Below are positions 1 through 14,151 of a DNA stretch of 15,002 nt, one piece after another. How positions within the stretch are numbered: position 1 is the stretch's first letter; the number at the start of each line of letters is the position of its first letter. The position numbers and the translations under genes were made by a program. Under the pieces are notes generated by a model, which worked only from the letters and a program-made list of their open reading frames with translations, made no database searches and was not told the origin of the DNA. The stretch lies in the IMG/VR virus record IMGVR_UViG_2579779049_000022, one strand, 5' to 3'. This DNA comes from a virus (lineage: Duplodnaviria > Heunggongvirae > Uroviricota > Caudoviricetes).

Positions 1-237
1 TTCACGTTCCAGCTCTTTCAGACGCTGACGTTCAGCGCTGGTGAGCCCACCATCACCGCCCCCGGTATCCCGCTCATGCTGGCGAACCCAGACACGCAGA
101 GTCTCCGGCGTACAGCCAATCTTTGGGGCAATGGAACAAATTGCCGCCCACTGTGAGTCATATTCATCCTGACTTTCCAGAACCATACGAATCGCCCGCT
201 GACGGACTTCGGGGGAAAAACGAGTATTTTTAGTCAT
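1..237 (-). CDS. IS3-family transposase OrfA, N-terminal part (partial, runs off window)
   Basis: ATG at 235-237 (minus) and HTH-type OrfA sequence; same protein as ORF 7828-8103 on the plus strand. Confidence 0.75.
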
Positions 238-291
238 CCTGTTTACCTCTTTCTCAGGGAGTTTAGTCTCCAGGATTTCCGGGGCGGTTCA
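1..291 (-). mobile_element. IS3-family insertion sequence (IS629/IS1203-like), terminal ~290 bp with inverted-repeat end at ~286-291; body continues beyond window start
   Basis: Reverse complement of 1-237 encodes the OrfA N-terminus [30 protein letters not shown]...LKELERE, a recalled IS3-family signature. Bases 1-291 are a near-exact inverted copy of 7774-8064. Shared sequence begins at TGAACCGCCCCGG, a typical IS3-family TG terminus. Confidence 0.75.
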
Positions 292-555
292 GATCCGTCT
301 TCAAATACAGCGTGGCAAATTTTGATAAAGCGCCTGTCGTCGACGATCTTTCTGATTGGTTTTCAAATTGCCAGTTCGCTTGGGATTGTGCTGCTTTCAA
401 CGCCGACTGGGATACTCTTTGACCACGCAGGCTACCAGACAGTTTTCTTCGCAATTTCGGGTATTGTCTGCCTGATGTTGCTATTTGGCATTTTCTTCCT
501 GAGTAAAAAACGCGAGCAAATAGTTATGGAAACGCCTGTACCTTCAGCAATATAG
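292..555 (+). pseudogene. 3' fragment of a membrane (transporter-like) protein gene truncated by the IS insertion
   Basis: The reading frame of ORF 322-555 stays open upstream through the IS junction at 291/292 with no proper start. The product is hydrophobic (LIGFQIASSLGIVLLS...FFAISGIVCLMLLFGIFFLS), typical of a transporter C-terminus. Confidence 0.55.
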
Positions 556-994
556 ACGTAAACTTTTCCGGTTGTTGTCGATATCTCCCTATCCCTCAAC
601 CGGAAAATAATAATACTAAAGTGCTTAGCCTGCTAATAATCACCTAATCCAAACGCCTCATTCATGTTCTGGTACAGTCGCTCAAATGTACTTCAGATGC
701 GCGGTTCGCTGATTTCCAGGACATTGTCGTCATTCAGCGACCTGTCCCGTGTATCACGGTCCTGCGAATTCATCAAGGAATGCATTGCGGAGTGAAGTAT
801 CGAGTCACGCCATATTTCGCTATCAGGATTCTGTGTGATGGTTACATCGCCCGGCCCAGGGCTGTTTAGTCATCAGCGCTTTCTGACAGTGCTGAGATTT
901 CAACCTGTTGCAGTAAAAATGAGTAGATATAAGGCAAGTGTGCTGCCAAACCTATCTTTTACGGGGTGAAGGTAGATTTCGTTTGAAGGGTATC

Positions 995-1069
995 TGGTGT
1001 CCCCTGCAGGAATCGAACCTGCAATTAGCCCTTAGGAGGGGCTCGTTATATCCATTTAACTAAGAGGAC
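995..1069 (-). tRNA. argW: tRNA-Arg (anticodon CCU)
   Basis: Reverse complement of 995-1069 is GTCCTCTTAGTTAAATGGATATAACGAGCCCCTCCTAAGGGCTAATTGCAGGTTCGATTCCTGCAGGGGACACCA: 75 nt with encoded CCA end, T-arm GGTTCGATTCC and anticodon loop CUCCUAAGG. Matches recalled E. coli argW. Confidence 0.92.
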
Positions 1070-1189
1070 GTTGTTGCGTATTGATTTTGGTTGTTCACCA
1101 TATGACTGATAATACCGTCTTTATGGTTTTAAAATCAAGGTGTAAGTTCGTTTTTGTTCATGGTTGATTATCTTCTTTTGCGTTGAAAA

Positions 1190-2434
1190 GTGTTTTGTTC
1201 ACTTGCTAATGCGTACATATTGAGTACAGAATACATTATAAACTTGTGTACAGGATATAAAGCATTGGCACTGAGTGACACCAAACTACGAGGCCTATAC
1301 GGAAAACCCTACTCTGGCCCTGCTGAAATCACCGATGGTGACGGGTTAAGTGTGCGGATTACTCCAGCAGGAACTATCACGTTTCAGTACCGTTATCGCT
1401 GGAATGGTAAGCCAGTACGTCTTACTGTCGGGCGCTATCCGTCCACTTCACTGAAGGACGCACGTGTTATCGTCGGTGAGATGCGCGCATTGTACATGAA
1501 GGGAGTTAACCCTAAAAATTATTTTGCCCCCAGTGATGGCGAATTGACATTAAAAGAATGCTTGGATCAGTGGTGGGATAAGTATGTTAGCGGCCTGAAA
1601 CCCAATACTCAGACGCTTTATAGATCTGTTGTGTACAACACCATGTACACACAGTTTGAAGACTCGCCAGTTGCCGGTATCCCTGTATCGGCCTGGGCTC
1701 GCTTTTTTGACAAACAAGAAAGCCTCAACAAGAAAAAGGCTCGTGTTCTGTTGTTACAACTGCGTTCAGTTATTAACTGGTGTATCAGCCGCCAGTTAAT
1801 CCCATCATGCGAATTACTCAAACTCAGTGTAAAGAATATTGGGAAGAAACCAGATGTGGGGAGTCGCGTACTTACCTATACGGAACTGGCAAAGATCTGG
1901 CTGGCACTGGAGAACTCAAAAGTGGTTACTTCCAACAAGCTGTTACATCAATTGCTATTGCTATGGGGGGCCAGGCTTTCTGAGCTACGTCTCGCTACAG
2001 CCAGTGAGTTCAACATGGAAGATCTGGTCTGGACAACCCCTAAAGAGCATTCAAAGATGGGTAATATTATCCGACGTCCGATATTTACTCAGGTTGAGCC
2101 TTATATTGAGCGATTGCTTAATATCGGATTTGATGTGCTGTTCCCTGGGCAGGAAATAGATAAACCTATTGACCGTTCGTCTGCTAATTTGTACATGAAA
2201 AAACTCAGGGCGAAAATTGATATTCCTGAATGGAGAACGCATGATTTTAGGCGTTCTCTGGTAACGAATTTATCTGGGGAAGGAATTATGCCCCACGTCA
2301 CTGAAAAAATGCTGGGGCATGAACTGGGAGGAGTGATGGCCGTGTATAATAAACACGACTGGTTGTCGGAACAGAAAGATGCGTATGAGTTGTATGCTGA
2401 TAAAATTTTCTGGCACGCTAAACAGCTCGGTTAA
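1190..2434 (+). CDS. Tyrosine-type site-specific integrase (P4-like, N-terminal arm-binding domain)
   Basis: N-terminal LSDTKLRGL...GLSVRITPAGTITFQYRYRWNGKPVRLTVGRYP is integrase arm-binding (DUF4102-like). C-terminal catalytic region has WRTHDFRRS, LGH and AVYNKHDW (R/H-x-x-R/Y motifs). No in-frame ATG near the 5' end, so start is GTG at 1190 or a downstream TTG (~1249/1264). Confidence 0.9.
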   Translation: MFCSLANAYILSTEYIINLCTGYKALALSDTKLRGLYGKPYSGPAEITDGDGLSVRITPAGTITFQYRYRWNGKPVRLTVGRYPSTSLKDARVIVGEMRALYMKGVNPKNYFAPSDGELTLKECLDQWWDKYVSGLKPNTQTLYRSVVYNTMYTQFEDSPVAGIPVSAWARFFDKQESLNKKKARVLLLQLRSVINWCISRQLIPSCELLKLSVKNIGKKPDVGSRVLTYTELAKIWLALENSKVVTSNKLLHQLLLLWGARLSELRLATASEFNMEDLVWTTPKEHSKMGNIIRRPIFTQVEPYIERLLNIGFDVLFPGQEIDKPIDRSSANLYMKKLRAKIDIPEWRTHDFRRSLVTNLSGEGIMPHVTEKMLGHELGGVMAVYNKHDWLSEQKDAYELYADKIFWHAKQLG

Positions 2435-2600
2435 TTCCTCCGGCTTTAAGCCATTGTTCAACGGCCTGACGGCTATATCGCGCCGGATGAGTAAGTACTG
2501 GATCAGGGAATCCGTGTTTTTTTCGCAAATTATACAAAGCTGTGCGCCTTTTTTGTAACAACTCAGAAACTTCTTTTTCGGTCATTAAGTTGATTTCCAT
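2418..2600 (-). CDS. AlpA-family phage transcriptional regulator / excisionase-like small HTH protein
   Basis: 60 aa product MEINLMTEKEVSELLQKRRTALYNLRKKHGFPDPV..., AlpA/excisionase-like HTH. RBS AAGGAG lies 8 nt upstream of the ATG. Convergent with the integrase, with 17 bp 3' overlap. Confidence 0.75.
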   Translation of the reverse strand: MEINLMTEKEVSELLQKRRTALYNLRKKHGFPDPVLTHPARYSRQAVEQWLKAGGINRAV

Positions 2601-2629
2601 AGTATGCTCTCCTTTTCTACATGTTTTTC

Positions 2630-2659
2630 AACAGCATAATAAACCGCCCGAAGGCGGTT
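2630..2659 (-). terminator. Rho-independent terminator candidate for the leftward operon
   Basis: Hairpin AACCGCC-cgaa-GGCGGTT (2642-2659) followed on the minus strand by a U-rich tract (UUUAUUAUG), directly after the stop of ORF 2661-2912. Confidence 0.5.
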
Positions 2660-2660
2660 G

Positions 2661-2912
2661 TTAGTTGATTGATGTACGGCGCATTTTTCGAAGGCTGGCA
2701 ATATGCTTTTCCTTCTCAATTTCCGCTTTAATCATATGCAGTTCGTTGTGCTCTATTCGCTCAAATTCTTCATTAAATGCACCAATTGAAGTGGCTCTGG
2801 TTCTGCCGTCGAGCCTTCGGTAGATCACCTGAGTCAGAGTTACCTTGCATATTTCTACCGGATAGTTGTTGGCATCAACGAAAGACTGCCCGCGCTGGAT
2901 CAGGACGAACAC
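2661..2912 (-). CDS. Hypothetical protein (GTG start)
   Basis: 83-codon ORF in the minus-strand operon, 13 bp overlap with the upstream ORF. No recognisable motif. May be one frameshifted gene together with 2900-3133. Confidence 0.4.
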   Translation of the reverse strand: MFVLIQRGQSFVDANNYPVEICKVTLTQVIYRRLDGRTRATSIGAFNEEFERIEHNELHMIKAEIEKEKHIASLRKMRRTSIN

Positions 2913-3133
2913 TGGTTGTATTCCTTGAGTGCCATATCATAAACACGGCATGCCGAGAGGTGTGTTGTAGTCAACGTCGTTCGTATCCTGAAAAGTCCAT
3001 GTGTTGTGACGGTAACTTCCGGGGCTTTGAGTTTCACTGCATCAACGATATGCTGATGTTTGCGGCTTTCGAATATAGAGCTGGAGATAACCACACTTGC
3101 TGTTAAACCGTAACTTTCAAATGTGATTTTCAT
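2900..3133 (-). CDS. Hypothetical protein (77 aa; start trimmed to MKITFESYG)
   Basis: RBS GAGGA 7 nt upstream of the ATG at 3131-3133. The longer 126 aa ORF in the track has an implausible N-terminal extension through AT-rich promoter-like sequence. Confidence 0.45.
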   Translation of the reverse strand: MKITFESYGLTASVVISSSIFESRKHQHIVDAVKLKAPEVTVTTHGLFRIRTTLTTTHLSACRVYDMALKEYNQCSS

Positions 3134-3276
3134 GTCATTATCCTCGCAGTTATCCGGGCAACAAAAATAAATAATGTTGTTCCTGCGAATAACAGGATAC
3201 CGCCCTTCATTAGAGAAAGGAAAAACAATATTAATGTACGCGGGTTGTTTCTCAAAATATTCTCTCTGTGATTCGC

Positions 3277-3648
3277 TCACTCTGACAATTCGTTGATCAA
3301 GTCACGGTATTTATTCAGTTCTTGCAGCGCCTTACATGCACCCTCCCATCGTTTCTGTTTCCGCCCGGCGCGACGCGCTTCTTTCCGTGATTTACGTAGC
3401 AGGTCACCTATAATGTTGTGCTGCACTGGCTGCACTGGCTGCACTGGCTGCACTGAGGCGATATTTGGTTTTTTGTCCACTTCCCTTGCAACTGCCTGCC
3501 AGATGCCATTTTTTACAGTTACTACCCCCTGGTTTTTTAACTTCCATAGAGTGTCAATAACGTCATTCAAATCAATATTGAGACCTTTAGAAATACTTTC
3601 GGCTGATGCTTTTCCTAATTTGTTCAATTCTGTGAGCACTGCGTTCAT
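3277..3648 (-). CDS. Hypothetical protein with winged-helix-like N-terminus and internal (VQP)n repeat
   Basis: RBS AGGAG 6 nt upstream of the ATG. N-terminal region MNAVLTELNKLGKASAESISKGLNIDLNDVIDTLWKLKNQGVV looks like a DNA-binding wHTH. Basic C-terminus. Contains the 9-bp tandem repeat. Confidence 0.6.
   Translation of the reverse strand: MNAVLTELNKLGKASAESISKGLNIDLNDVIDTLWKLKNQGVVTVKNGIWQAVAREVDKKPNIASVQPVQPVQPVQHNIIGDLLRKSRKEARRAGRKQKRWEGACKALQELNKYRDLINELSE
3421..3456. repeat. Tandem repeat, 9-bp unit CTGCACTGG x4 (last copy CTGCACTGA)
   Basis: Direct reading of 3421-3456. Encodes VQPVQPVQPVQ in the minus-strand ORF 3277-3648. Confidence 0.9.
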
Positions 3649-3683
3649 TTTTTTCTCCTGATATTTTAATGTCGGTGGGGCTG

Positions 3684-3878
3684 TTATACGGTTGGTGAGG
3701 TGTCAGCTTCTTCTACCAGCTTTTCCAGTTCATCCAGCTTTCGGGAAAGAATTTCACCAAACAGATGAAGTTCTGCATCTGCTGTAATCGGGATTGGAAC
3801 AAATCGTATTCCACTTCTGGCAAGTTGATTTGCGATTTCCAGACACTGCCTTAATTCAACTGGTGATGCCTTTGTCAA
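3684..3878 (-). CDS. Hypothetical acidic small protein; start uncertain (TTG 3878, or ATG 3980 with 125 bp overlap of the methyltransferase gene)
   Basis: Protein-like ORF (...VELRQCLEIANQLARSGIRFVPIPITADAELHLFGEILSRKLDELEKLVEEADTSPTV) in a different frame from the MT-A70 3' end. No convincing SD at either candidate start. Confidence 0.35.
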   Translation of the reverse strand: MTKASPVELRQCLEIANQLARSGIRFVPIPITADAELHLFGEILSRKLDELEKLVEEADTSPTV

Positions 3879-4482
3879 CGTCGTTTTTTCGCTTATTGGT
3901 TTTCTCCAGAAATTTAACAATACCCGGAACCATCTCAATGGATGGTGTGCCGCATTGGTTACCCCATACATCAAATCCATGCGAGGTGTGGCGGGCGAAC
4001 AGTTCTATCCGGGGAACATCGCCAAGAAGTTGCACAAGTTTTTCTCGAGCCATATCCGGCTTGCGGGAGTGATCAAGGCGCGGTGCAGTGAATGACTGGA
4101 TTATTCCGGCGTTAATGCGTTCGGGCAGATTTCCTTTCACTGCAAAAAGGCAGTCTTCGCTGTTAGCGCGAGTGGTGCTACCCATACCCATGACCAGCTT
4201 GTCGGTCTGTCTTTTCCCGCATTTGTTCCAGGTTAATCCTTTCATCGTCACCAGACGAAAGCCCCACGCTTCTACAACCTTCAATGCTTCAAGTGGTTGT
4301 GTAGGCACCCACCACATAGACAACAGGCAATTATCGGCTGCCAGTTCCCATACCGGGAGGCGGCAGATATCCAGAAGACTCATGACCGGATATTTAAAAC
4401 TTGCACCGCGTTGACCATCGGTTGCTTTGTCGCGGAATGTCCAGGGGGGATCTGCGTAAATGAGGGTGTATTTTTTCGTCAT
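3856..4482 (-). CDS. MT-A70 family DNA N6-adenine methyltransferase (phage Dam-like)
   Basis: N-terminal LIYADPPW (DPPW catalytic motif) and C-terminal FDVWGNQ, characteristic of the MT-A70 family. ATGA start/stop overlap with the upstream gene at 4479-4482. Confidence 0.85.
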   Translation of the reverse strand: MTKKYTLIYADPPWTFRDKATDGQRGASFKYPVMSLLDICRLPVWELAADNCLLSMWWVPTQPLEALKVVEAWGFRLVTMKGLTWNKCGKRQTDKLVMGMGSTTRANSEDCLFAVKGNLPERINAGIIQSFTAPRLDHSRKPDMAREKLVQLLGDVPRIELFARHTSHGFDVWGNQCGTPSIEMVPGIVKFLEKTNKRKNDVDKGITS

Positions 4483-4910
4483 AGCGCGTTTTCAAACTCA
4501 TCAATGTAAAGTCCTGCTTTAATCAGTCGGCGACGGCGTTCGGCCTTTTGCACGTATTCCTCGCGACAGTTTTTTGCTGCGTGTTCACGGCTTCTGCGAC
4601 TGAATGGAGGAACGGCATTGCGTGAGCGAGGTGTGTCACGACGAGGATTTGATTCGAGGGAGAAAAAGCGATCAACGATTCCGGTGTCTGTGGTGAATGG
4701 TTCTGAAGCCTTTATTTTCACAACCTTACTGCCCTTTGTCAGGCCGCGAGCTACCTTGTTGAACTCGCAAAGTGAAACACCAAATTTCTCTGCTATTTCA
4801 CTGCCAGTAACAGGACGACCACGAGACTGAATCATCCAGGTGACGCGTTCTTTTAACCCACGGAAGGCACCGGGCCTTCCAGAACGCCTGTAGAAAGCGA
4901 TCTGTTTCAA
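4479..4910 (-). CDS. Hypothetical basic protein, possible DNA-binding (TTG start)
   Basis: GGAGA RBS 7 nt upstream of TTG 4910. Segment RPVTGSEIAEKFGVSLCEFNKVARGL is HTH-like. Arg-rich C-terminus. Stop overlaps the methyltransferase start. Confidence 0.5.
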   Translation of the reverse strand: MKQIAFYRRSGRPGAFRGLKERVTWMIQSRGRPVTGSEIAEKFGVSLCEFNKVARGLTKGSKVVKIKASEPFTTDTGIVDRFFSLESNPRRDTPRSRNAVPPFSRRSREHAAKNCREEYVQKAERRRRLIKAGLYIDEFENAL

Positions 4911-4924
4911 ATTTTTGTCTCCAG

Positions 4925-4952
4925 ATATGAAAACCCCGACGGGATGTCGGGG
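4925..4952 (-). terminator. Rho-independent terminator candidate downstream of the antirepressor-like gene
   Basis: Hairpin CCCCGAC-n5-GTCGGGG (4934-4952) followed on the minus strand by UUUUC. Confidence 0.5.
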
Positions 4953-4965
4953 ATGGTAGGGGAAG

Positions 4966-5604
4966 TTACAGGCTTAACGAGAAGCCTTTTCGGGAATTTC
5001 GATCTGACAATCTTGAAATATCCTGTAGCGTGCGGCGCATTTCTTCCGTCAGATGCTTGAAGGCGTTAAATTCAGCGACAGCGGCGTCAACGTTATAGCC
5101 TTTGCTGTGTAGCTCATTGAGGATGCGCATAGTTGGGCTTGGCATGTCGAAGAGCACAGAAACGTCCAGGTTAAGAGTTTTTCGATCAACATAGCTCATC
5201 ATGGAGTAGGGGTGGTGCTCTGAAAACCACGATAGAGGGTAGTTGATGTTCATTGGTGCAGGTAAAAGGCTCTGGCGAAGTTTCTTTTCGCACTCGATGA
5301 AGTATCGGCGGATCTGGCGGCCTTTTTCGTTACGCTCAACCATCGCCAGTTCTTTGGCTGTGTCGAGAGTTAGGTGGTAGTCCTTGCTACGGCGATCACC
5401 TCCTCGCCCTTTGGTTTGCCCATTTTGGCAAATCAAAATATAGTCCTGGCTTTCAACGAATCCATATTCAGCAATGCGTTCTTTAACCCAGTGCGCGAAC
5501 ATTCTGCCCACACCAAGAAAAGAGTGTAGATCACGAGCGTTAACTAGAAGAATTGTTTCGTTGTCGATAGTGCCGTTGAATACGGGGATGAGTTGACTGG
5601 TCAT
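4966..5604 (-). CDS. Phage antirepressor-like protein (AntA/Bro-N-type N-terminal domain)
   Basis: Strong RBS AAGGAGG 5 nt upstream of ATG 5604 (the track ORF starts 10 codons earlier without an RBS). N-terminal NARDLHSFLGVGRMFAHWVKERIAEYGFVESQDY resembles the antirepressor/Bro-N family. Confidence 0.65.
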   Translation of the reverse strand: MTSQLIPVFNGTIDNETILLVNARDLHSFLGVGRMFAHWVKERIAEYGFVESQDYILICQNGQTKGRGGDRRSKDYHLTLDTAKELAMVERNEKGRQIRRYFIECEKKLRQSLLPAPMNINYPLSWFSEHHPYSMMSYVDRKTLNLDVSVLFDMPSPTMRILNELHSKGYNVDAAVAEFNAFKHLTEEMRRTLQDISRLSDRNSRKGFSLSL

Positions 5605-5633
5605 GATGACCTCCTTTGAAGTTTTAGTTAGCA

Positions 5634-5656
5634 ATCACCAGTTAGTGGCTGGTGAT
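5634..5656. promoter_or_regulatory. Palindrome ATCACCAG-N7-CTGGTGAT in the 5' region of the antirepressor-like gene (candidate operator)
   Basis: Perfect 8-bp inverted repeat read directly. It lies between a TTGACA hexamer (minus strand, 5661-5666) and the gene's RBS. Confidence 0.3.
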
Positions 5657-5959
5657 CGGGTGTCAACTAGAGCCTTCAAAGATGCTCCGGGCATATTCCC
5701 CTTGCGGGTATTGTATTACGCCTCTCCACCCGACCTTTGTACGGATGTGACTATGCCAAATTGCAGGCATAAAAAAGCCGCAAAGCTATCGGGTGCGGAT
5801 GACCGCTTTGAAGTTCTAGTGCGGTCAGTATGCGATAGCTCTGGCGGATTTGTCAAATCATGTAGGCCTTATCTTGCTGTAAGCCGCGCCATTCGGGCTT
5901 TTCCCCAGATTTGGGGGAAACTATCTGCGAAGTATTCACCTTTGACGGCAAGTTGCAGG

Positions 5960-6856
5960 TTAGCCACGGTTAACCTCCTGCGGCGGTTCTGGTAGCGGCA
6001 TCCAGTGTGTTACCTGCTCAACACCATTGCCCGGCTTAATCGTTGCTTCTCCTCGCCGAAAGGTGCTTCCGGTATAGCGTGCGGAGCATATTAGCGGCTC
6101 AACCAGATCACTATCGAAATTCACCGAAATAAGTACGTTCTGATTCTTTTTCGGCATTCGCTCACTACAGCTTATCCAACTATCCGGAGTTACCGGATAG
6201 TTGCCCGATAGTGCATTCTGCTCCAGTGATGCTTTTACAAACCACGCTGCCTGAACTATAACGCCATGAATCCAGCGCAAATCAGCATCGCGATCTTTCT
6301 TTTTCATCTTTTCGCCACTTAAGGCCTTGCTTATGTGGCTGCGTACCAGGTCTTCATGTAATTCCTTCGCCTCCTCAATGGTGAAACCACCAGGCAGAAG
6401 AGCCGGAGTTACCGGAGAGCTGGTTGACGCTTCCGGGATTTTTCGAAAATTATTGGTTGACGAATCTTTATTTTCCCGAAAGTTTCCGGACTGAAGCATG
6501 GCTTCGCGGCAATCGTTCCAGCCTGTAGCGTATGCAGCCGCTTTGCTGCTGCCTTCAACTGGCGCATCCTGCCAATACATTTCTTCCGGCACTATCGGCG
6601 CTGGAGGGGCGGCAAATAGATATCCGCCAAAGTCAGGAAGCTCTCTAATGGCCTGTACGAATTTTTGTTTGCCTACGTCAACCCCTAATGGGTAATGAGC
6701 TATAATCTTTGCCACCGGCTCTGCTTCCAGCGATGCCAGCGCAATCCGTGCCAGCTCTTCCGCTTCTTCTGCTGGAAGCACAACGTTGCTACCCGGTCCG
6801 TATGTTTCGCGCCAATGCTGGATTGTCAGCAGTCGCTCTTTGGTAAAAGTGGTCAT
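5960..6856 (-). CDS. DUF551-domain phage protein
   Basis: C-terminal WISCSERMP...HWMPLPEPP matches the recalled DUF551 signature. RBS AAGGTGA upstream of the ATG at 6856. Confidence 0.7.
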   Translation of the reverse strand: MTTFTKERLLTIQHWRETYGPGSNVVLPAEEAEELARIALASLEAEPVAKIIAHYPLGVDVGKQKFVQAIRELPDFGGYLFAAPPAPIVPEEMYWQDAPVEGSSKAAAYATGWNDCREAMLQSGNFRENKDSSTNNFRKIPEASTSSPVTPALLPGGFTIEEAKELHEDLVRSHISKALSGEKMKKKDRDADLRWIHGVIVQAAWFVKASLEQNALSGNYPVTPDSWISCSERMPKKNQNVLISVNFDSDLVEPLICSARYTGSTFRRGEATIKPGNGVEQVTHWMPLPEPPQEVNRG

Positions 6857-6858
6857 AG

Positions 6859-7050
6859 CTATTTCACCTTAATCTCAACATTTCGCAGCTTTAGCTCTAC
6901 TGGCAGGTCTGACTTTCCTGTTAATGCTAATGCGAGATTTTCTGGAGTAGTGAGAACAGTTATTGTTTTCCCCCTCGCCAGACGAATAATCATGTGTATC
7001 TCGCTATCGTCACATGCTCCTGGTCGAACAATTGAGATTTGTCCGTTCAT
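6859..7050 (-). CDS. Small hypothetical protein (63 aa), translationally coupled
   Basis: ATG at 7048-7050 lies 1 nt after the TGA stop of the upstream gene, with AAGGAG 6 nt upstream. The longer track ORF would need a start inside the upstream gene. Confidence 0.5.
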   Translation of the reverse strand: MNGQISIVRPGACDDSEIHMIIRLARGKTITVLTTPENLALALTGKSDLPVELKLRNVEIKVK

Positions 7051-7051
7051 C

Positions 7052-7459
7052 TCACTCTCCTTTGATGCGAATGCCAGTAGCGCGGATTGCATCGATGACT
7101 TCAGAAACTTTGTATGCCATTACCGTTTGGTAATCATCGTGAAAATCTGTTCGATGAAGCATGCTGCTACGTTCCGGGAGCAGTATTTCCCGCGCTTCCA
7201 GTTCTGCAATGCGCTTTTTTGCTGCTTCCAGTTCATCCAGTAATTCCAGCACGGTAGCCGGATTAGCCTTGGCAACAAAATCCCGGACTGGCTTACAATC
7301 AATCTCCGCAATGGGTTGATACGATGTGTAGCCATGCTGTCTTGTATAACTACCGTGACGAATAACGAAAAAATCACCATTTATTTTTTTAGCCTGCCAC
7401 TTATCTTCACCGGCTTTCTCTGCCGCTTCACGCAGTGCCTGATAGTCAATCTTGCTCAC
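7052..7459 (-). CDS. ead/Ea22-like family prophage protein (paralogue 1; GTG start)
   Basis: Coiled-coil motif ANPATVLELLDELEAAKKRIAELEAREILLP and C-terminal AIRATGIRIKGE. AGGAGG 6 nt upstream of GTG 7457-7459, which overlaps the upstream stop (GTGA). Paralogous to 9308-9769. Confidence 0.6.
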   Translation of the reverse strand: MSKIDYQALREAAEKAGEDKWQAKKINGDFFVIRHGSYTRQHGYTSYQPIAEIDCKPVRDFVAKANPATVLELLDELEAAKKRIAELEAREILLPERSSMLHRTDFHDDYQTVMAYKVSEVIDAIRATGIRIKGE

Positions 7460-7773
7460 TGGTTGCCTCCTTTGCGAAGCCGTTCCGCCCATTCTTCAAG
7501 GGATTTCTCTGCATATTCACCGGACAGGCCATCAATCGGATGCGATTCATTAGCTAACTCTTCTTTTGCTGACAGAATCATGCGCGTAACGTCGAAAACT
7601 TCACGTAAAGACTTATTGATAAATCCGTGGTTGAAAGCAGCAGCAAGACGGCTTGCGGTATAGTTAATCCCCTCGTTGCGAGCCTCCGCACGAATTTCAG
7701 CCAGAAAAGCATCGGTGGCTGGAATTTGCGGCATCCCTCCATCTGTTGCGCAGATATACGCATCAGATAGCTC
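7456..7773 (-). pseudogene. 3' portion of a prophage gene whose 5' end was removed by the IS insertion at 7774
   Basis: Frame is open upstream of the first ATG (7734) right up to the IS junction at 7773/7774. The Met at 7734 has an SD too close to be functional. Confidence 0.5.
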
Positions 7774-8103
7774 TGAACCGCCCCGGAAATCCTGGAGACT
7801 AAACTCCCTGAGAAAGAGGTAAACAGGATGACTAAAAATACTCGTTTTTCCCCCGAAGTCCGTCAGCGGGCGATTCGTATGGTTCTGGAAAGTCAGGATG
7901 AATATGACTCACAGTGGGCGGCAATTTGTTCCATTGCCCCAAAGATTGGCTGTACGCCGGAGACTCTGCGTGTCTGGGTTCGCCAGCATGAGCGGGATAC
8001 CGGGGGCGGTGATGGTGGGCTCACCAGCGCTGAACGTCAGCGTCTGAAAGAGCTGGAACGTGAAAATCGTGAACTGCGCCGCAGTAACGATATCCTTCGC
8101 CTT
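7774..8103 (+). mobile_element. Truncated IS3-family (IS629/IS1203-like) element, left end only
   Basis: Left end TGAACCGCCCCGGAAATCCTGGAGACTAAACTCCCTGAGAAAGAGGTAAACAGG plus orfA, identical to the inverted copy at 1-291. OrfA homology ends after ...RRSNDILR at ~8100 and there is no orfB, so the element is internally deleted. Confidence 0.75.
7828..8103 (+). pseudogene. IS3-family transposase OrfA, truncated at the 3' end
   Basis: Product [23 protein letters not shown]...[10 protein letters not shown] then diverges (LPFVHHG) into flanking prophage sequence. Confidence 0.7.
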
Positions 8104-8185
8104 CCATTTGTTCACCACGGGTAAGCCCGTTTTCAAGCGGATTTTTAATGAACAATTCAATACGTTCTTTGGTAATAGTGGTCAT
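8104..8185 (-). pseudogene. 5' fragment (27 codons) of a prophage gene truncated by the IS; N-terminus resembles the DUF551 gene
   Basis: ATG at 8183-8185 with RBS AAGGAG upstream. Encodes [28 protein letters not shown], compare MTTFTKERLL of 5960-6856. The frame runs into the IS remnant. Confidence 0.5.
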
Positions 8186-8195
8186 GTGTTACTCC

Positions 8196-8459
8196 TTAAC
8201 CCGCAGTGCTTTCAACTGATGAGGGGAACAAAATCTTTTCATCAAACCCTGCATTCATATCATGAACAGCAACACACCAATCCATCGACGAACGATTATC
8301 AAGAGCCTCCATGATTTCATCCATGCGGCGTAGGTCATACAGGTAAATGCTTTTATCGCCAATGGTGTAAAAGCCAATTTTTTTCGGTGATGGACAGCGA
8401 TCAAGAACTTCCTGTAATTCGTTCAACCATGCCCGTTCTTTTTTTGTCAAAGTTGCCAT
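8196..8459 (-). CDS. Hypothetical prophage protein (87 aa; start trimmed to MATLTKKERAWLNELQ)
   Basis: RBS AAGGAAA upstream of ATG 8457-8459. The upstream part of the track ORF lacks a start signal. Confidence 0.5.
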   Translation of the reverse strand: MATLTKKERAWLNELQEVLDRCPSPKKIGFYTIGDKSIYLYDLRRMDEIMEALDNRSSMDWCVAVHDMNAGFDEKILFPSSVESTAG

Positions 8460-8460
8460 A

Positions 8461-8598
8461 TCAGTTTTCCTTATACGGATTAATTTTATTGTGCAGTGTG
8501 TTGAATGACGCCCATACCACGTCGTTATACAATTCAATAACTGGCTCAATTATTTTTCCGATTATCCAGACTAGGATTAACGGGGATATCGGTATCAT
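8461..8598 (-). CDS. Possible small hydrophobic protein (45 aa)
   Basis: ORF MIPISPLILVWIIGKIIEPVIELYNDVVWASFNTLHNKINPYKEN, not in the supplied track. Its TGA stop lies 1 nt before the downstream ATG. No clear SD. Confidence 0.3.
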   Translation of the reverse strand: MIPISPLILVWIIGKIIEPVIELYNDVVWASFNTLHNKINPYKEN

Positions 8599-8710
8599 CA
8601 ACACGATAAACAGAATGAGAAACAGAAATTCTGTTGTTCTACTCTTTCGCGGATATTTTTTCTAAATAATGTGACCATTCATTACCGCCCTTTCGGGCGG
8701 CCTCCTGACA

Positions 8711-8923
8711 TTAATCGTTGTGATAACTCATAGCTTCATTTGCAGCATCAACTGGATCAACCTCCCTCCAGCAATAATTTGGGTCGGCTCCTTCAGGCGT
8801 CCACGGTTCTAATTCATTTTTTGCCGCATTCTCATCGCCAGTAATTTTAAAAATCTGCTCAGAGAATTTTCTTGCCCACTCGTTATATTTTTCCGCATTA
8901 ATGGCTTTCTGTGTATTTAACAT
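8711..8923 (-). CDS. Hypothetical acidic small protein (70 aa)
   Basis: Strong RBS GGAGGTG 5 nt upstream of the ATG. Followed after the stop by a GC hairpin CCGCCC-tttc-GGGCGG (8685-8700). Confidence 0.55.
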   Translation of the reverse strand: MLNTQKAINAEKYNEWARKFSEQIFKITGDENAAKNELEPWTPEGADPNYCWREVDPVDAANEAMSYHND

Positions 8924-8973
8924 AAATACACCTCCAGTTAAGGATTAGATTTTATTTACAGCGCTAAATTTAT

Positions 8974-9330
8974 TTATTCAGTTCTGGATTTTGTCACCCT
9001 GCGTATCCGCGCTTTCGCGTTACGCTCAATCTGAATTAACTTTTCTATATTTTTCCGCCTTTCCTGTTCCTCCTGGCGCAATAGCTTTACATCATCTGCC
9101 AGCCTAGTTTCTCTTTTCGCCACAGAGAGCATCCAGTCAAATGGCTCCACAACTGCACCGCAGATTTTACAGCGGACCTGACGCTCTTTTTCGTCAACCC
9201 GGACAGAGGCGTGATGACAATATGGTCTTTCCGATGGCTCATAAAGAAAATTAACCTGATTACGAGGGTCATCCTCTTTTACCGGAAATAAAACGATATT
9301 GCTTAACTCATCTTCTGGTTTTATTTCCAT
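8974..9330 (-). CDS. Zinc-ribbon-containing hypothetical protein
   Basis: AAGGAG RBS upstream. Cys/His cluster PYCHHASVRVDEKERQVRCKICGAVVEPFDW, then a basic coiled-coil-like C-terminus. Confidence 0.55.
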   Translation of the reverse strand: MEIKPEDELSNIVLFPVKEDDPRNQVNFLYEPSERPYCHHASVRVDEKERQVRCKICGAVVEPFDWMLSVAKRETRLADDVKLLRQEEQERRKNIEKLIQIERNAKARIRRVTKSRTE

Positions 9331-9769
9331 GCTCCTCTCCTTTGATGCGAATGCCAGCGACGCGTAATGCGTGTTCTAGGTCAATCAGGTAAAGCCAACT
9401 GCCATTTTCTTTAGGTATCATGACATGTCGCTCATCTGCATTTATCGGGTGTCCATATCGAAGGTCGTAGCGAGTCGGTAATTGAACTTCCCGCGCATCC
9501 AGTTCAGCAATACGCTTGCTCCCATCAGAGATAACGCCTTCGTAATACTCACGCTGCTCGTTGAGTTGTGATTTTGCTTCTTCCAGTCCATCCAGCAAAC
9601 CAGCGATAATATCCGCTTCCCGATGACGGATATGACGCTTAAACGCAGCAAGAGCCGCATCACAATCCCGTTCAGCATTTGGGCTGTCCGGGGTAGCCTG
9701 ATACCACGCCAGCGTCGACTGATAGTTTTGTGCTGCCTCACGAAGCGCCTCATAGTTAACCTCTCTCAT
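9308..9769 (-). CDS. ead/Ea22-like family prophage protein (paralogue 2, C-terminally extended by loss of the stop codon)
   Basis: Shares YEALREAA, LLDxLEEAK, RIAELxAREVxLP and AxRxAGIRIKGE with 7052-7459. The junction sequence CTCCTTTGATGCGAATGCCAG repeats at 7055-7075 and 9336-9356. Here the equivalent stop is GAG, so the ORF runs 24 nt into the next gene. Confidence 0.6.
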   Translation of the reverse strand: MREVNYEALREAAQNYQSTLAWYQATPDSPNAERDCDAALAAFKRHIRHREADIIAGLLDGLEEAKSQLNEQREYYEGVISDGSKRIAELDAREVQLPTRYDLRYGHPINADERHVMIPKENGSWLYLIDLEHALRVAGIRIKGEEHGNKTRR

Positions 9770-10062
9770 TGAGCCACCTCCTGATAAATCACCGCATGCC
9801 CCAGTCTCTCCGCCAGTGCCAGCTCTGCCTTAGCGCCCGCTGACCGCTGCCAGCCATTCAGCATGTAAATCGCATCCACACAACGAATCATTGCCATGCA
9901 AATATCCATGTAGTGCGGCTGTGTCAGCCCGTCCGGAAGTACTGCCGGGTTTAAGACGGTATGCCCTTCCCGTTTCAGTTCCTCTTCCACCTTGTGAAAT
10001 GCCTCACGGTTGAAATTTTCATATCCCGTCATTGGACCGGCAATATAAACTCTCACCCTCAC
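9766..10062 (-). CDS. DUF4406-like protein (nucleoside 2-deoxyribosyltransferase-like fold)
   Basis: N-terminal MRVRVYIAGPMTGYENFNREAF (YIAGPM motif) recalled as the DUF4406 signature. GTG start overlaps the upstream stop (GTGA); AGGAGGTGA RBS. ATGA overlap with the downstream gene. Confidence 0.65.
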   Translation of the reverse strand: MRVRVYIAGPMTGYENFNREAFHKVEEELKREGHTVLNPAVLPDGLTQPHYMDICMAMIRCVDAIYMLNGWQRSAGAKAELALAERLGHAVIYQEVAQ

Positions 10063-10481
10063 TCCATCACCTCCTGAAAGTTTCCCCGATAGAACGCCAG
10101 CACACGCTGCATAACTTCGCTCCTCCTGCTCTCACGACAAATTATGTTCTGGTGCCTGTCGTAGCGGCGTATTTCGCCGTCTGGTAACGACCAGATAAGG
10201 TCCGGATCAACCACTGCAGGTTTCTTCAGCTTTGCCCTTGAGAGCTTTTTACGGGTATTTTGCCAGTCCTTACGCGCCTGTTCAGACGGGAATAACCCGT
10301 AACCAGAGTTGTATACATCGCCACTGGCAACCAGCTCTCTGGCCAGAACGCTCATCAGATATCTTGTTGCCCCAGTTTTAGCTTCCAGTTGTCGTAACGT
10401 CTCGCGCCCACTCTGGCGTACGAGTTCAAGAACCTGCCCTTTAATTTTTTCCCGCTCTTCTTGTGTAAAAACTTTTGCCAC
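10059..10481 (-). CDS. Hypothetical protein directly downstream of the replication gene (possible replication accessory/DNA-binding protein)
   Basis: GTG start with AGGAGGG RBS. N-terminal region LELVRQSGRETLRQLEAKTGATRYLMSVLARELVASG is wHTH-like. Function not recognised. Confidence 0.5.
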   Translation of the reverse strand: MAKVFTQEEREKIKGQVLELVRQSGRETLRQLEAKTGATRYLMSVLARELVASGDVYNSGYGLFPSEQARKDWQNTRKKLSRAKLKKPAVVDPDLIWSLPDGEIRRYDRHQNIICRESRRSEVMQRVLAFYRGNFQEVME

Positions 10482-10521
10482 AAGCCCTCCTGAAAATTAC
10501 CTCATGACCAGAAATTAACAC

Positions 10522-11592
10522 TTACCCCCTGAAGCCCGGCGGAATTTCGTTATCCGGTTCAGAAATATGATTCACACAACGCTGGTTGTTCGTGCCGCTT
10601 ACCGGGAGCAACCAGGGGTTCTCAAAATTCCGGTCCGGTCCAAAAAACGTCGTCGCTCGCTGAACAAATTCCGTTCCCGTTTTCCCGGTAGCCGCCAAGT
10701 ATCTTGCGTAACGCCTCACGCCATCCAGCATGGCCTCTGGTGGCACCCCCTCGCGTAATCTGGCCTTCCAGGCACTGAAAGCGGATTTCTTCGGGTTTGC
10801 CCCAGCACGCAACGGGTACTCCCGCCAGACCTGTTCGAACACATCCGGATAATCCACTCGTCCCACAGACTGACCGGTGTTTTCCGGGACTACCCGATCG
10901 GCTTCCCGCTGAATGGCGGAATCGGCTTCAGGCTGCTGCAGTTGGTGTGATTGCTCCGGCCTTGCGGTCATCACCTGCTGCACAGCGCCCGAATCGGCTT
11001 TCAGCGCATACGCTGAATCGGCTTCCGGTGTCGTGCCTGCTGGCTGACCAGGATTGACGGTCTGAACATCCCCTGCCTGGTTCGTGGCGTTTTTTACGCC
11101 ATGGACCATAGTGTTTTGATCTTCTTGATCTGTATCTTTATCTGTATCTTTATCTGTCGTGACTCGTCGTGACATGTGCGTGACATTTCGTGACGCGCCG
11201 TGACAATCGCCATTTTGTTCCCGCTTTCTTTCCCTCTCTCGCTGCGCCCTCTTGCGCTCTGCAGGAGATTTTGCGGTTTGCGAAATATTGCCGTTGTCCT
11301 CTTTAAGCACCTGGCGTTTTTCCCATCCAGTGATTAAATCACCATCAAGTACCCGCCCCTGCATCGTCTGCAAAATTGAATCAATTACCTCTTCTGTCAC
11401 GTCGAGCGCACTTGCCAAATCTTCTGTCGTGACATCAATGTGACCTCGCGTGACATTTCGTGACGCGCTCACCAGGAGGTGGATATACACTGCCATCACT
11501 GTTGCAATTGGCTGCCCTGACACCCTGGCAATTGTTCGCCACTTAGGGTCATTTGGCATGTCATGCCATAATCTGAGCCAGGCGTTAGCCAT
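10522..11592 (-). CDS. Phage replication initiator / replisome-organiser-like protein with internal origin-like iterons
   Basis: Position immediately after the Cro-like and YdaT-like genes. Architecture is N-domain, low-complexity linker (DKDTDKDTD, Q/P/T-rich), C-domain (DYPDVFEQVWREYPLRAGANPKKSAFSAWKARL...TFFGPDRNFENPW). Iteron-like CGTGAC repeats and an AT-rich tandem repeat lie inside the coding sequence, as in the lambda O gene. Confidence 0.65.
   Translation of the reverse strand: MANAWLRLWHDMPNDPKWRTIARVSGQPIATVMAVYIHLLVSASRNVTRGHIDVTTEDLASALDVTEEVIDSILQTMQGRVLDGDLITGWEKRQVLKEDNGNISQTAKSPAERKRAQRERERKREQNGDCHGASRNVTHMSRRVTTDKDTDKDTDQEDQNTMVHGVKNATNQAGDVQTVNPGQPAGTTPEADSAYALKADSGAVQQVMTARPEQSHQLQQPEADSAIQREADRVVPENTGQSVGRVDYPDVFEQVWREYPLRAGANPKKSAFSAWKARLREGVPPEAMLDGVRRYARYLAATGKTGTEFVQRATTFFGPDRNFENPWLLPVSGTNNQRCVNHISEPDNEIPPGFRG
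11128..11157. repeat. 12-bp tandem repeat (TGTATCTTTATC x ~2.5), AT-rich, adjacent to iterons
   Basis: Direct reading. Encodes DKDTDKDTD in the minus-strand replication gene. Confidence 0.85.
11158..11204. repeat. Iteron-like array A: five CGTGAC hexamers at 10-11 bp spacing
   Basis: CGTGAC starts at 11158, 11168, 11179, 11189 and 11199, a helical-turn periodicity. Overlaps the 21-bp direct repeat GCGTGACATTTCGTGACGCGC (11178-11198). Confidence 0.7.
11396..11468. repeat. Iteron-like array B: inverted GTCACG (11396) then CGTGAC/TGTGAC hexamers at 11428, 11439, 11449, 11459
   Basis: Contains a second exact copy of GCGTGACATTTCGTGACGCGC (11448-11468), 270 bp from the first. Confidence 0.65.
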
Positions 11593-11663
11593 ACTCACCT
11601 CTTCTGATACCGAATCTTTTTACTCACGAGTTGCCGGAAGCGATTCGATACGGCTATTGTCAG

Positions 11664-12089
11664 TCAATGTACTGCCACAGCATTTCCTGCCGGGCCACCA
11701 CGGTTCATCTGATTGAAACCGGCGATTGCCACTGCGACAAAATCATCAGCGTCTCTCACCAGTCGCTCCCGCGTCTCCACCAGCTCCCGAAAATAAGCTG
11801 AACTGTGGCTGCGCATTCTGGCCACCAGCAAAGGTGGCATTGCCTTTTCGATCGCTGGTAACAACGCCTGAATTTTTTCAACTGCATCAGGGGTGTCTTT
11901 CTCTACCCAGCGGAAAATTTTCTGGGTATTGCGAGCCAGGGCTTCCGGATGGCTGTCGTCATACAGTTCAGGAAACGTCATACCCAACTCAAAATAAGCC
12001 TGGGTTATTCCAGCTGCTGGAACTTTTTCGCCATCAGGACGCGCCCAGGCATTCATCGCCATGCGGATGTGTTCATGCTTGATTTTCAT
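11664..12089 (-). CDS. ydaT: YdaT-like prophage protein (CII-position regulator)
   Basis: N-terminal MKIKHEHI... matches recalled Rac YdaT. Sits directly downstream of the Cro-like gene with 17 bp overlap; AGGAG RBS 8 nt upstream of the ATG. Confidence 0.6.
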   Translation of the reverse strand: MKIKHEHIRMAMNAWARPDGEKVPAAGITQAYFELGMTFPELYDDSHPEALARNTQKIFRWVEKDTPDAVEKIQALLPAIEKAMPPLLVARMRSHSSAYFRELVETRERLVRDADDFVAVAIAGFNQMNRGGPAGNAVAVH

Positions 12090-12354
12090 GAATCAAGCTC
12101 CTAGTAAGTGGTTGTGTTAACGTTTTGGTATCTTCCAGCTCGGGCCAAATATTCATCCAATCAAAAGGCCTTAGTTGCTGACGTGTAACTTCACCATTAC
12201 TGGCTCGCTCAATAAGGACACATAACGATGCCCCTAACATTTGACCTTTACTCAATGCCTTTCTTAGATAACCGATGCTAGTACCACACTCACATGCAAA
12301 CATACGCTGTTCATCTGACGAAAGAGAATTGAGAAATATTCTTAATTCTTCCAT
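12073..12354 (-). CDS. ydaS: YdaS-like Cro-type HTH regulator (first gene of the rightward-equivalent early operon)
   Basis: Strong RBS AAGGAG 5 nt upstream of the ATG. Motif ...CGTSIGYLRKAL...NGEVTRQQLRP resembles the YdaS/Cro-like HTH family. Divergent from the repressor gene. Confidence 0.65.
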   Translation of the reverse strand: MEELRIFLNSLSSDEQRMFACECGTSIGYLRKALSKGQMLGASLCVLIERASNGEVTRQQLRPFDWMNIWPELEDTKTLTQPLTRSLIHENQA

Positions 12355-12453
12355 AGCTACTCCTTAGTAAACACAGCAAGAATACCCACAGGTAAACAAA
12401 AGTCAATACCCTTGGGTTGTTTACCTTGCGGTAATCGCATCTATTATTTACCT
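12355..12453. promoter_or_regulatory. Immunity-switch intergenic region: divergent promoters with operator-like inverted repeats
   Basis: 15-bp inverted repeat CCCACAGGTAAACAA (12385-12399) / TTGTTTACCTTGCGG (12417-12431), 13/15 matches. Central near-palindrome ACCCTTGGGT (12406-12415). Minus-strand promoter candidate TTGACT(12401-12406)-16 bp-TATTCT(12379-12384). TATTAT hexamer at 12442-12447, 6 bp upstream of the repressor ATG. Confidence 0.6.
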
Positions 12454-12873
12454 ATGGACAAATATGAATTTAGACGACAACAACTCATCAAAATTCGTGA
12501 TGAGAAATGCGATGGTAAAGCGGTTAACGTGGCCAGAAAGATCGGTCGCGAGCCTTCTTATGTATCAAGAATGTTGTACCCAGAGGGGAAAAAAGGAAAA
12601 AAACGGATCGCTGATGATATGGTGGAGATTATAGAAGAGTCCTTTGGGTTACCCCGGGGATGGATGGATGGTATCGTTTCATCATCAACGAACACAGCCT
12701 CCAATTATGAAACAAGGGTTCTAACGCCACGACAACGTATTTTTTTAGATCTCTTAGACGAACTGCCAGAAAGTGAAGCGGATAACTTATTAAAAACTCT
12801 TGAAGAGAAAAAACAGTATTACAATATGATCTACGAAGAAATCCGTAAAAAGAAAGCACAAAACGCATCATAA
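12454..12873 (+). CDS. Prophage repressor, DicA/RacR-like HTH protein (no S24 peptidase domain)
   Basis: HTH segment AVNVARKIGREPSYVSRML. C-terminal ...ELPESEADNLLKTLEEKK resembles recalled DicA ...ALPESEQDTQLAEM. Divergent from the Cro-like gene. ATG at 12454 preferred over upstream TTG; no SD, so possibly leaderless. Confidence 0.65.
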   Translation: MDKYEFRRQQLIKIRDEKCDGKAVNVARKIGREPSYVSRMLYPEGKKGKKRIADDMVEIIEESFGLPRGWMDGIVSSSTNTASNYETRVLTPRQRIFLDLLDELPESEADNLLKTLEEKKQYYNMIYEEIRKKKAQNAS

Positions 12874-12911
12874 CTCACCAAACAACCAGTCACCAGTTAA
12901 GACACATCAAA

Positions 12912-12956
12912 AAATTACCCATGGGTATTTACTTTTTAAATACCCATGGGTATCCT
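12912..12956. promoter_or_regulatory. Twin perfect palindromes TACCCATGGGTA (12916-12927, 12941-12952) forming one extended inverted repeat; candidate OL-type operators and/or terminator hairpin
   Basis: Read directly. The sites are separated by TTTACTTTTTAAA and followed by T-rich TCCTTCCTTTC. A TTTACT...TATCCT promoter-like pair overlaps them. A related half-site lies in the 12355-12453 switch region. Confidence 0.55.
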
Positions 12957-13138
12957 TCCTTTCATACCAACCCACCCCGTCCCACAGAACGCAGGGCAAT
13001 ACTTCGAGTTACCAGGCAGTGGTCAGGGGGTAAGTAGCCAGCCCGAGGCGTAAGAACATGACGGCAGGGTTCAACTTTAATAACTATGCAGCAGGTTTTT
13101 GTTCCGCTACCCCGGCGTTAAGGGGAAATGAGGTCAGC

Positions 13139-13291
13139 ATGGATACTATCGATCTTGGCAACAGCGAATCTCTGGTATGCGGCGTGTTTCCCAACCAGGA
13201 CGGTACGTTTACCGCGATGACGTATACCAAAAGTAAAACGTTTAAAACCGAAGCTGGCGCGCATCGCTGGTTAGCAAGAAACTCCGACTGA
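13139..13291 (+). CDS. YdfA/YdaF-like small prophage protein (50 aa)
   Basis: RBS GAGGT 4 nt upstream of ATG 13139 (the track ORF begins earlier without signals). Product MDTIDLGNSESLVCGVFPNQDGTFTAMTYTKSKTFKTEAGAHRWLARNSD. First gene after the repressor, as ydfA is after dicA in Qin. Confidence 0.55.
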   Translation: MDTIDLGNSESLVCGVFPNQDGTFTAMTYTKSKTFKTEAGAHRWLARNSD

Positions 13292-13302
13292 TGAGGTTGA
13301 CG

Positions 13303-13941: not shown

Positions 13942-14151
13942 TTATAAGGAAACACCAGCAGGGCCGCGGCGACCAACAGAACGATTAAAATCAATAATGC
14001 CATTATAAAGGACATTATTTAATTTATCGTCGAATGCTGATTCTGTGAGCCTCAACTCTGAATGAGTTTTTAATAACCCTGATTGCCTGAGTTGATTTAC
14101 CAGGCATTCAATCTGTTTTTCAATAAGCGGATTTCTTTTTTTGTTTGGCAT
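13942..14151 (-). CDS. Hypothetical small protein (69 aa), convergent partner of 13303-13941
   Basis: Strong RBS GGAGGA 4-5 nt upstream of ATG 14149-14151. Lys-rich N-terminus MPNKKRNPLIEKQIECLVNQLRQSG. Its stop abuts the stop of the plus-strand gene. Confidence 0.45.
   Translation of the reverse strand: MPNKKRNPLIEKQIECLVNQLRQSGLLKTHSELRLTESAFDDKLNNVLYNGIIDFNRSVGRRGPAGVSL

Follow-up and report, generated by a model that had tools for sequence, protein, structure and literature searches.

Phi24B and the argW locus

The closest described counterpart of the locus considered here is the integration system of the Shiga toxin (Stx) phage Phi24B, whose integrase Int, excisionase Xis, attachment (att) sites and promoter have been the subject of experiments (PMC3064807, PMC7581858). 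The int gene of Phi24B is inverted relative to that of lambda and is read divergently from a promoter of its own, pInt, outside CI control, with xis at the end of the leftward early operon; the inverted int and pInt have been published, and the function of xis has been shown by experiment (PMC3064807). An open reading frame of 1245 bp with a GTG start, first proposed in silico for int, has been discredited, with transcription mapped by rapid amplification of cDNA 5′ ends (5′-RACE) to a start 46 bp downstream, and the working start codon is TTG (PMC3064807). A 24-bp crossover site has been published, as has the requirement for a 49-bp “B arm” in attB (PMC7581858), and the primary site has been placed approximately 250 bp upstream of intS (PMC5247750). 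The word “tRNA” is absent from these papers (PMC7581858, PMC3064807, PMC5247750), in which the site is given relative to intS. Here we describe a stretch of 15,002 bp of Escherichia coli DNA (the window, meaning the whole stretch analysed), which is the entire contig AVDU01000088.1 of the O111:H- 95NR1 draft genome, obtained with the Illumina GAII platform (PMC6602927), and in which a Phi24B-type int stands next to a complete argW gene. In our assessment it is highly probable that this int belongs to a Phi24B-type Stx2a prophage inserted at the 5′ end of argW, to which it appears to bring a replacement promoter, and that the right half of the window derives from other prophages. The features involved are the following.

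995-1069, minus strand: argW, tRNA-Arg(CCU), complete (ARAGORN; Rfam tRNA, 63.4 bits)
1046-1069, minus strand: attachment core GTCCTCTTAGTTAAATGGATATAA, 24 bp, equal to argW nt 1-24, at the argW-side prophage junction
1138-1109, minus strand: candidate sigma-70 promoter directed toward argW, TTGATT-18-TATTAT (promoter scan)
1203-1236, plus strand: region of pInt, the promoter of int (published 5′-RACE start at about 1236; block strongly conserved across loci)
1265-2434, plus strand: int, Phi24B-type tyrosine integrase of 389 aa with a TTG start (Pfam Arm-DNA-bind_3 and Phage_integrase; phage DNA identity; annotation)
2418-2600, minus strand: xis, HTH_17 (AlpA/TorI-like) excisionase of 60 aa (Pfam HTH_17; annotated as xis in Phi24B)

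The int-xis DNA is 99.5% identical over 1531 bp to that of the inducible phage vB_EcoP_24B (Phi24B, HM208303), whose annotated coordinates relative to the 24-bp core are the same as in the window. More generally, the region 1070-2600 matches the ends of 113 phage genome records, almost all of them Stx-converting, at 95-99.8% DNA identity. Judged by its sequence, then, the int-xis module is the integration module of a Phi24B-type Stx phage. The Phage_integrase domain (PF00589) of Int scores 64 bits against a cut-off of 27, and the columns that are invariant or nearly invariant across 21 homologues include R237, K264, H326, R329, H352 and Y361, which are the probable catalytic residues. The xis gene is convergent with int and is the final gene of the leftward early operon.

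A first-pass annotation of the window, made from the sequence, had described an intact 75-nt argW on the minus strand with a divergent int on its 5′ side, in agreement with ARAGORN, Rfam and Pfam, and the tRNA sequence shows no difference from K-12 argW. The distance of 120 bp between int and argW given there was counted from the GTG at 1190, the start of the discredited frame, and has to be corrected. The published starts of Phi24B int map in the window to about 1236 for transcription and to the TTG at 1265 for translation, and both RefSeq and GenBank annotation agree on this TTG. Since the true start of int is TTG 1265, the argW-int spacer measures 195 bp.

Integration at the 5′ end of argW

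The core GTCCTCTTAGTTAAATGGATATAA comprises the 5′ acceptor strand and the D arm of argW (nt 1-24) and has a single occurrence in the window, with 0 expected by chance. The same 24 bp are common to four sequences, two of which are taken from K-12 and from the closed genome of strain 95JB1, a clonal sibling of 95NR1:

K-12 empty site (attB): left flank ...ccgcatt, right flank CGAGCC
Phi24B attP: left flank ...gcaacaac, right flank TGAATAC
Window junction, argW side: left flank ...gcaacaac, right flank CGAGCC
95JB1 junction, yfdC side: left flank ...ccgcatt, right flank TGAATAT

Because the flanks of these four att sequences swap as expected, site-specific recombination can be assigned to the 24-bp core. 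The empty site of K-12 argW, a comparison of the kind proposed in the first-pass annotation, supplies both of the host flanks (ccgcatt and CGAGCC). The K-12 coordinates of the core agree with the published position about 250 bp upstream of intS.

In 95JB1, yfdC and argW flank the full Stx2a prophage, which is located 5′ of the tRNA gene and has both att junctions intact. Tables of Stx-producing E. coli (STEC) genomes give the same order, “yfdC - Stx2a prophage - argW”, and show the opposite side of argW taken up by another element, Sp16. The phage attP holds nt 1-24 of the tRNA, the complete argW is found on the int side, and a 24-nt stub is found on the yfdC side, as in an element that recombines with the 5′-distal part of a tRNA gene. 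The arrangement of a canonical element at a tRNA 3′ end is not seen: the core corresponds to nt 1-24, argW has the element on its 5′ side, and neither a second copy of the 5′ core nor one of the argW 3′ end occurs inside the window. These alignments place the integration site at the argW 5′ end, and the element rebuilds the 5′ part of the tRNA.

The earlier proposal that integration had taken place elsewhere than at the argW 3′ end is thereby upheld: the same gene is used at its 5′ end, and the 24-bp att repeats are intact. A duplicated argW segment at the far end of the element, which the first-pass annotation had named as a refuting result for the 3′ portion, does exist, on the yfdC side in 95JB1, but it is a 5′ and not a 3′ segment; the direct repeat of the argW 3′ portion that was also proposed as a check has no counterpart in the window.

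Conserved geometry and a candidate replacement promoter

The region 600-2600 of the window adjoins argW in 220 of 5,426 complete E. coli genomes, with the best match (100%) in O111:H- 95JB1. For a survey of the geometry beyond E. coli, Int homologues were collected, 21 of them were aligned, and one genome was scanned per species. All 26 species-representative loci with an Int of at least 66% identity have tRNA-Arg(CCU) on the strand opposite to int, with the tRNA 5′ end located 173-196 bp upstream of int. These loci come from Erwinia, Enterobacter, Pantoea, Phytobacter, Brenneria, Xenorhabdus, Providencia, Proteus, Morganella, Salmonella, Tatumella, Rosenbergiella and Rouxiella, among others, and two additional truncated contigs break inside the 5′ part of the tRNA. 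The tRNA/integrase geometry had been called non-canonical in the first-pass annotation; it is indeed unusual with respect to the general rule for tRNA genes, but within this integrase family it is the conserved norm. A contig of Erwinia typographi (NZ_JRUQ01000067.1, L012:2783-2806) features the int-side core GTCTCCTTAGTTAAATGGATATAG followed by non-tRNA sequence, with identity to the tRNA stopping at nt 23, and looks like the attP form, unintegrated or episomal, of an argW-type element.

After integration, the native argW promoter stays on the yfdC side. The spacer between argW and int, which is derived from the element, contains the candidate sigma-70 promoter TTGATT-18-TATTAT, whose -10 hexamer TATTAT ends 39 nt before the tRNA +1. 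This spacer was aligned for 27 argW-linked loci (the window and the 26 species genomes). The pattern TTGnnn-18-TAnnAT is present in 27/27 loci, the TTG and the 18-nt spacing being exact in all; at the -10 hexamer, T1, A2 and T6 are kept in all 27 loci and A5 in 26, and the promoter-like element ends 39 nt before +1 in 26 of the 27. The positions that vary are those that matter least in sigma-70 promoters. Otherwise the spacer is poorly conserved (mean column identity of 0.60), save for a second conserved block with TGTAC repeats around 1203-1236, coincident with the published pInt region, within which the hexamers of pInt would lie. The phage copy of the tRNA begins exactly at +1, and the tRNA is intact in every aligned locus. 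The precursor predicted from a start near 1102 has a leader of approximately 33 nt, largely unpaired, and keeps the cloverleaf. The conserved TTGnnn-18-TAnnAT is thus consistent with a replacement promoter for argW borne by the element.

Composition of the draft contig

When compared with the closed genome of 95JB1, the window separates into three segments that match three different loci. The segments, with the genes of the second and third, are as follows.

1-8101: argW locus of 95JB1, at about 2.95 Mb; no mismatch except for a 36-bp difference at 3420-3455
7765-8101, plus strand: copy of the insertion sequence (IS) IS1203, first 337 bp, inserted in an ea22-like gene and cut at 8101 (inverted repeat with 1-300)
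8102-10938: yccA-site lambdoid prophage of 95JB1 (L085), at about 1.12 Mb; no mismatch; on the minus strand, DUF4014, Ea22/RseB-like, DUF4406 and DUF977 genes and part of the replication gene (nin and replication region)
10874-15002: serU-site prophage of 95JB1 (L086), at about 2.44 Mb; no mismatch; immunity region and rest of the replication gene
11664-12089, minus strand: ydaT (serU-type segment)
12073-12354, minus strand: ydaS/cro-like gene (serU-type segment)
12454-12873, plus strand: repressor-like gene (serU-type segment)
13058-13291, plus strand: DUF1391 gene (serU-type segment)
14490-14541, plus strand: DicF small RNA (Rfam, 75 bits), part of the serU-type segment and not of the argW prophage
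14722-14910, plus strand: dicB, part of the serU-type segment and not of the argW prophage

Identity to the 95JB1 argW locus stops at 8101, within an IS that is full-length there. At this first switch (8101|8102) the window reads CTTCGCC|TTCCATTTG, the intact IS CTTCGCCAGGCTTCC, and the yccA-type prophage GTGCCAGTTCCATTTG. The second switch lies within a 65-bp stretch (10874-10938) that is identical in the two prophages concerned, which are 99% alike over about 1.5 kb. The exact protein spanning the first junction (7828-8124) was found only on this draft contig. The replication protein encoded across the second switch is common at the protein level (629 blocks) and is uninformative on the join, but the gene neighbourhoods in which it occurs bear out the usual layout from dic to int. 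The replication gene also contains an exact 21-nt direct repeat, GCGTGACATTTCGTGACGCGC, at 11178-11198 and 11448-11468 (270 bp apart), and these repeats may represent iterons of a replication origin. On the comparison with 95JB1, the contig is most likely an assembly chimera of three prophages.

The dic operon illustrates the point. The series DUF1391-DicF-dicB continues through an exonuclease gene and xis to an int of its own in 95JB1, in strain 8E and in 8/8 other genomes read, and in 95JB1 this xis and int adjoin tRNA-Ser. The dic operon therefore points at an int beyond the end of the contig. The first-pass annotation had remarked that the dic operon is directed away from the int beside argW and the Cro-side operon toward it. 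This describes the contig correctly, in that the ydaS/cro-like, ydaT and replication genes are on the minus strand and the dic genes on the plus strand, but not the organisation of any one prophage, as the three segments match three separate 95JB1 prophages. The window as a whole is not a single lambdoid prophage: it comprises three prophage segments, and the int of the dic operon is elsewhere. Of the proposal that the element is mosaic or rearranged, what stands concerns the right half only, as a composite of the draft contig; the int end is not rearranged. That the argW and yccA prophages had been joined by inversion was also considered and rejected, since the strand of the match to 95JB1 and to strain 8B is the same for both parts, as in a join of the deletion type.

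Proposed mechanism and alternatives

Under the explanation that we favour, positions 1070-7764 belong to a Phi24B-type Stx2a prophage, of which they form the end nearest int, and its Int recombines the 24-bp core equal to argW nt 1-24. With the crossover in the 5′ portion of the tRNA, the prophage comes to lie between yfdC and argW, on the tRNA 5′ side, and because the phage carries its own nt 1-24, a complete argW is rebuilt beside int, with the native argW promoter and the 24-nt stub left at the far, yfdC end. Transcription of argW would start from the sigma-70 promoter in the phage arm and yield a leader of about 33 nt, presumably removed by RNase P, and int is transcribed divergently from its own promoter (start at about 1236, TTG at 1265), outside CI control, as published for Phi24B. 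The draft contig passes from the argW prophage to the yccA-site prophage, and from there to the serU-site prophage.

Several points weigh against parts of this explanation. Strand exchange is placed no finer than within the 24-bp core. The conservation of the candidate promoter at 1109-1138 could partly reflect Int arm-binding or other att functions. Finally, the join at 8101|8102 has neither homology nor a shared k-mer, which is unusual for an artefact of de Bruijn assembly, and could be a real junction, for example inside one of the extra 95NR1 prophages Phi14 or Phi15.

The last of these points gives some room to the alternative that the segment order is a real rearrangement in 95NR1, mediated by IS1203 or located within Phi14/Phi15, and not a chimera of assembly. 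There is no shared sequence at 8101|8102 that would have misled a k-mer assembler, and 95NR1 carries two extra Stx2 prophages, absent from 95JB1 and unresolvable by short reads, of which Phi15 has been flagged as questionable or incomplete by PHAST. Yet all three segments have a counterpart of 100% identity at a locus of their own in 95JB1, and the second switch falls in the 65-bp identical stretch of a 99% repeat. The first join would link about 2.95 Mb to about 1.12 Mb on the 95JB1 map, that is, a deletion of approximately 1.8 Mb, which is unlikely to be viable, and neither join is present in any of the 5,426 complete E. coli genomes. Furthermore, the only differences reported between the two published closed genomes are a pair of extra prophages, one IS and a small number of single-nucleotide polymorphisms, whose coordinates, as far as 3.8 Mb, are shifted by no more than about 350 bp (PMC6602927), so that the two are collinear within this margin. 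We thus regard a real rearrangement as rather unlikely, and a chimera of three prophages as the better account of the contig.

It is more doubtful still that integration silences argW, with a phage arm devoid of a working promoter and a cell that relies on argU and on the tRNA-Arg genes of the phage. The stranding of the native promoter at the yfdC side would fit such a scenario, AGG is also readable by argU, and these prophages carry genes for tRNA-Ile, tRNA-Arg and tRNA-Arg upstream of stx2. The promoter-like element, however, has been conserved in 27/27 loci, and at 39 nt in 26 of them, while neighbouring positions drift, and the phage copy of the tRNA begins at +1 with the tRNA intact in every locus; conservation of this element together with an intact tRNA therefore suggests selection for argW expression. 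The third alternative, already raised in the first-pass annotation, in which int and xis are the remnant of a P4-like island captured beside argW, with no relation to the lambdoid genes around them, draws on the CP4/P4-type arm-binding domain of Int and the AlpA/TorI-like (HTH_17) nature of Xis, and can practically be dismissed, since the same module (95-99.8% identity) ends 113 sequenced phage genomes, those of Phi24B and other inducible phages included, contiguous with early genes, a full-length Stx2a prophage retains its two att junctions in 95JB1, and the functions of Int and Xis have been shown for Phi24B.

Relatives of the integrase that target sbcB

More distant relatives of the integrase adjoin a protein-coding gene. 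Full-length sbcB, encoding exonuclease I, lies divergent from int in 36/36 distant relatives with enough upstream sequence (among L031, L033 and L035-L074), with Int identities of 37-64% and the sbcB start codon 99-248 bp upstream of int. These relatives span Enterobacterales, Orbales, Vibrio, Shewanella, Colwellia, Psychromonas and Alteromonas, among others, and sbcB is listed in an STEC table as the site of the Stx2c prophage in O157. No RNA gene was found upstream of int in an Rfam scan of 16 sister-clade loci, the target there being sbcB. In the E. coli locus L036, K-12 sbcB is matched only from about codon 12, the element supplying the region upstream as well as about the first 11 codons of sbcB.

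The sbcB-type prophages are the nearest integrase relatives found, and share with the window the divergent geometry and a full-length target gene. They differ in that the target is protein-coding and not a tRNA gene, and in that the cores, judged by eye, have no obvious similarity. From these comparisons, targeting of 5′ ends looks like a trait of the whole integrase lineage. As far as the literature was searchable, no statement of lineage-wide 5′-end targeting for this integrase family was found.

The sublocations used for integration within tRNA genes are reportedly the anticodon loop, the T-loop and the 3′ end. One may tentatively go further and suppose that Phi24B-type and sbcB-type integrases form a lineage that systematically targets gene 5′ ends and brings a replacement promoter (with start codons in the case of sbcB), and that the tRNA D-arm is an additional integration sublocation with a crossover near argW nt 17-24, although we consider this wider proposal a possibility that falls well short of probable.

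Other features of the locus

The 3′ side of argW bears two features.

1-300, minus strand: end of IS1203 (IS3 family), interrupting cscB (300-nt inverted repeat with 7765-8064; 95JB1 annotation; HTH_Tnp_1 domain)
322-555, plus strand: 3′ fragment of cscB, encoding the last 77 codons of a LacY-family sucrose permease (Pfam LacY_symp, profile positions 343-412 of 413)

The window sequence begins inside the IS1203 copy at 1-300, and cscB is split by IS1203 in the 95JB1 annotation. The truncated host-like gene and the IS that had been noticed on this side in the first-pass annotation are thus identified as the cscB fragment and the IS1203 end. In 95JB1 the csc island and dsdXA are found on the 3′ side of argW; CPS-53 occupies the corresponding place in K-12.

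The early region of the argW prophage is as follows.

2661-7734, minus strand: leftward early (“exo-xis region”) genes encoding DUF4222, DUF1627, DUF1382, MT-A70 methylase, AntA, DUF551 and Ead/Ea22-like proteins (Pfam)

This region is identical to that of 95JB1 except for the copy number of a 9-bp repeat: at 3420-3455, inside the DUF1627 gene, the window has four perfect copies of the unit GCTGCACTG, a number that differs from that in 95JB1. A match to sRNA-Xcc1 (RF02221) of 65.4 bits, above the gathering score, is located at 5646-5735 on the minus strand, just upstream of the AntA-family gene. In the argW Stx2a prophage of 95JB1, the genes for tRNA-Ile, tRNA-Arg and tRNA-Arg are situated just upstream of stx2 (L004:40775-41026).

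Comparison with known systems

Stx phages that insert at argW, clinically important as carriers of Stx2a, normally have int on this apparently wrong side of the gene, and its position is not a sign of rearrangement. The right half of the contig is unfit for inferring prophage architecture, because three prophages are joined in it. In the literature that could be searched, no statement was found of the argW nt 1-24 core with its conserved candidate replacement promoter, or of the sbcB parallel. Taken together, the identity of the core, the promoter-like element at a fixed distance and the parallel with sbcB would explain in a simple way why insertion of an element at a 5′ end need not silence the gene concerned. 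If the tRNA promoter is replaced by the phage arm, lysogeny would rewire the transcription of argW, a suggestion that can be tested.

The same tRNA gene is used in another manner by the integrase IntS of CPS-53/KplE1 and by that of Kapi1, which resemble the Int described here in having argW as target and in being tyrosine integrases with an N-terminal arm-binding domain. CPS-53 and Kapi1 differ from the window in using the last 15-17 nt of argW (the Kapi1 att site being 17 bp), with the element on the 3′ side, and the identity between IntS and the window Int is only 29%, over 93 N-terminal residues. As STEC genomes show, one argW gene can have an element on either side at the same time. Recombination with the 5′-distal part of tRNA genes is known and considerably less frequent, according to PMC6563490, where Zhao & Williams 2002 and archaeal cases are cited; as far as they are described there, such elements resemble the present one in replacing the 5′ and not the 3′ part of the target gene. 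With respect to Phi24B, nothing essential differs: the window shares its int-xis DNA and its 24-bp core, int is likewise inverted and read from a promoter of its own, xis is again convergent, and the place of insertion in the chromosome is the same. The system is therefore already known, as the Phi24B integrase and the Stx phages that insert at argW, to which the equivalence of the core with argW nt 1-24, the conserved promoter-like element beside it and the parallel with sbcB are modest extensions.

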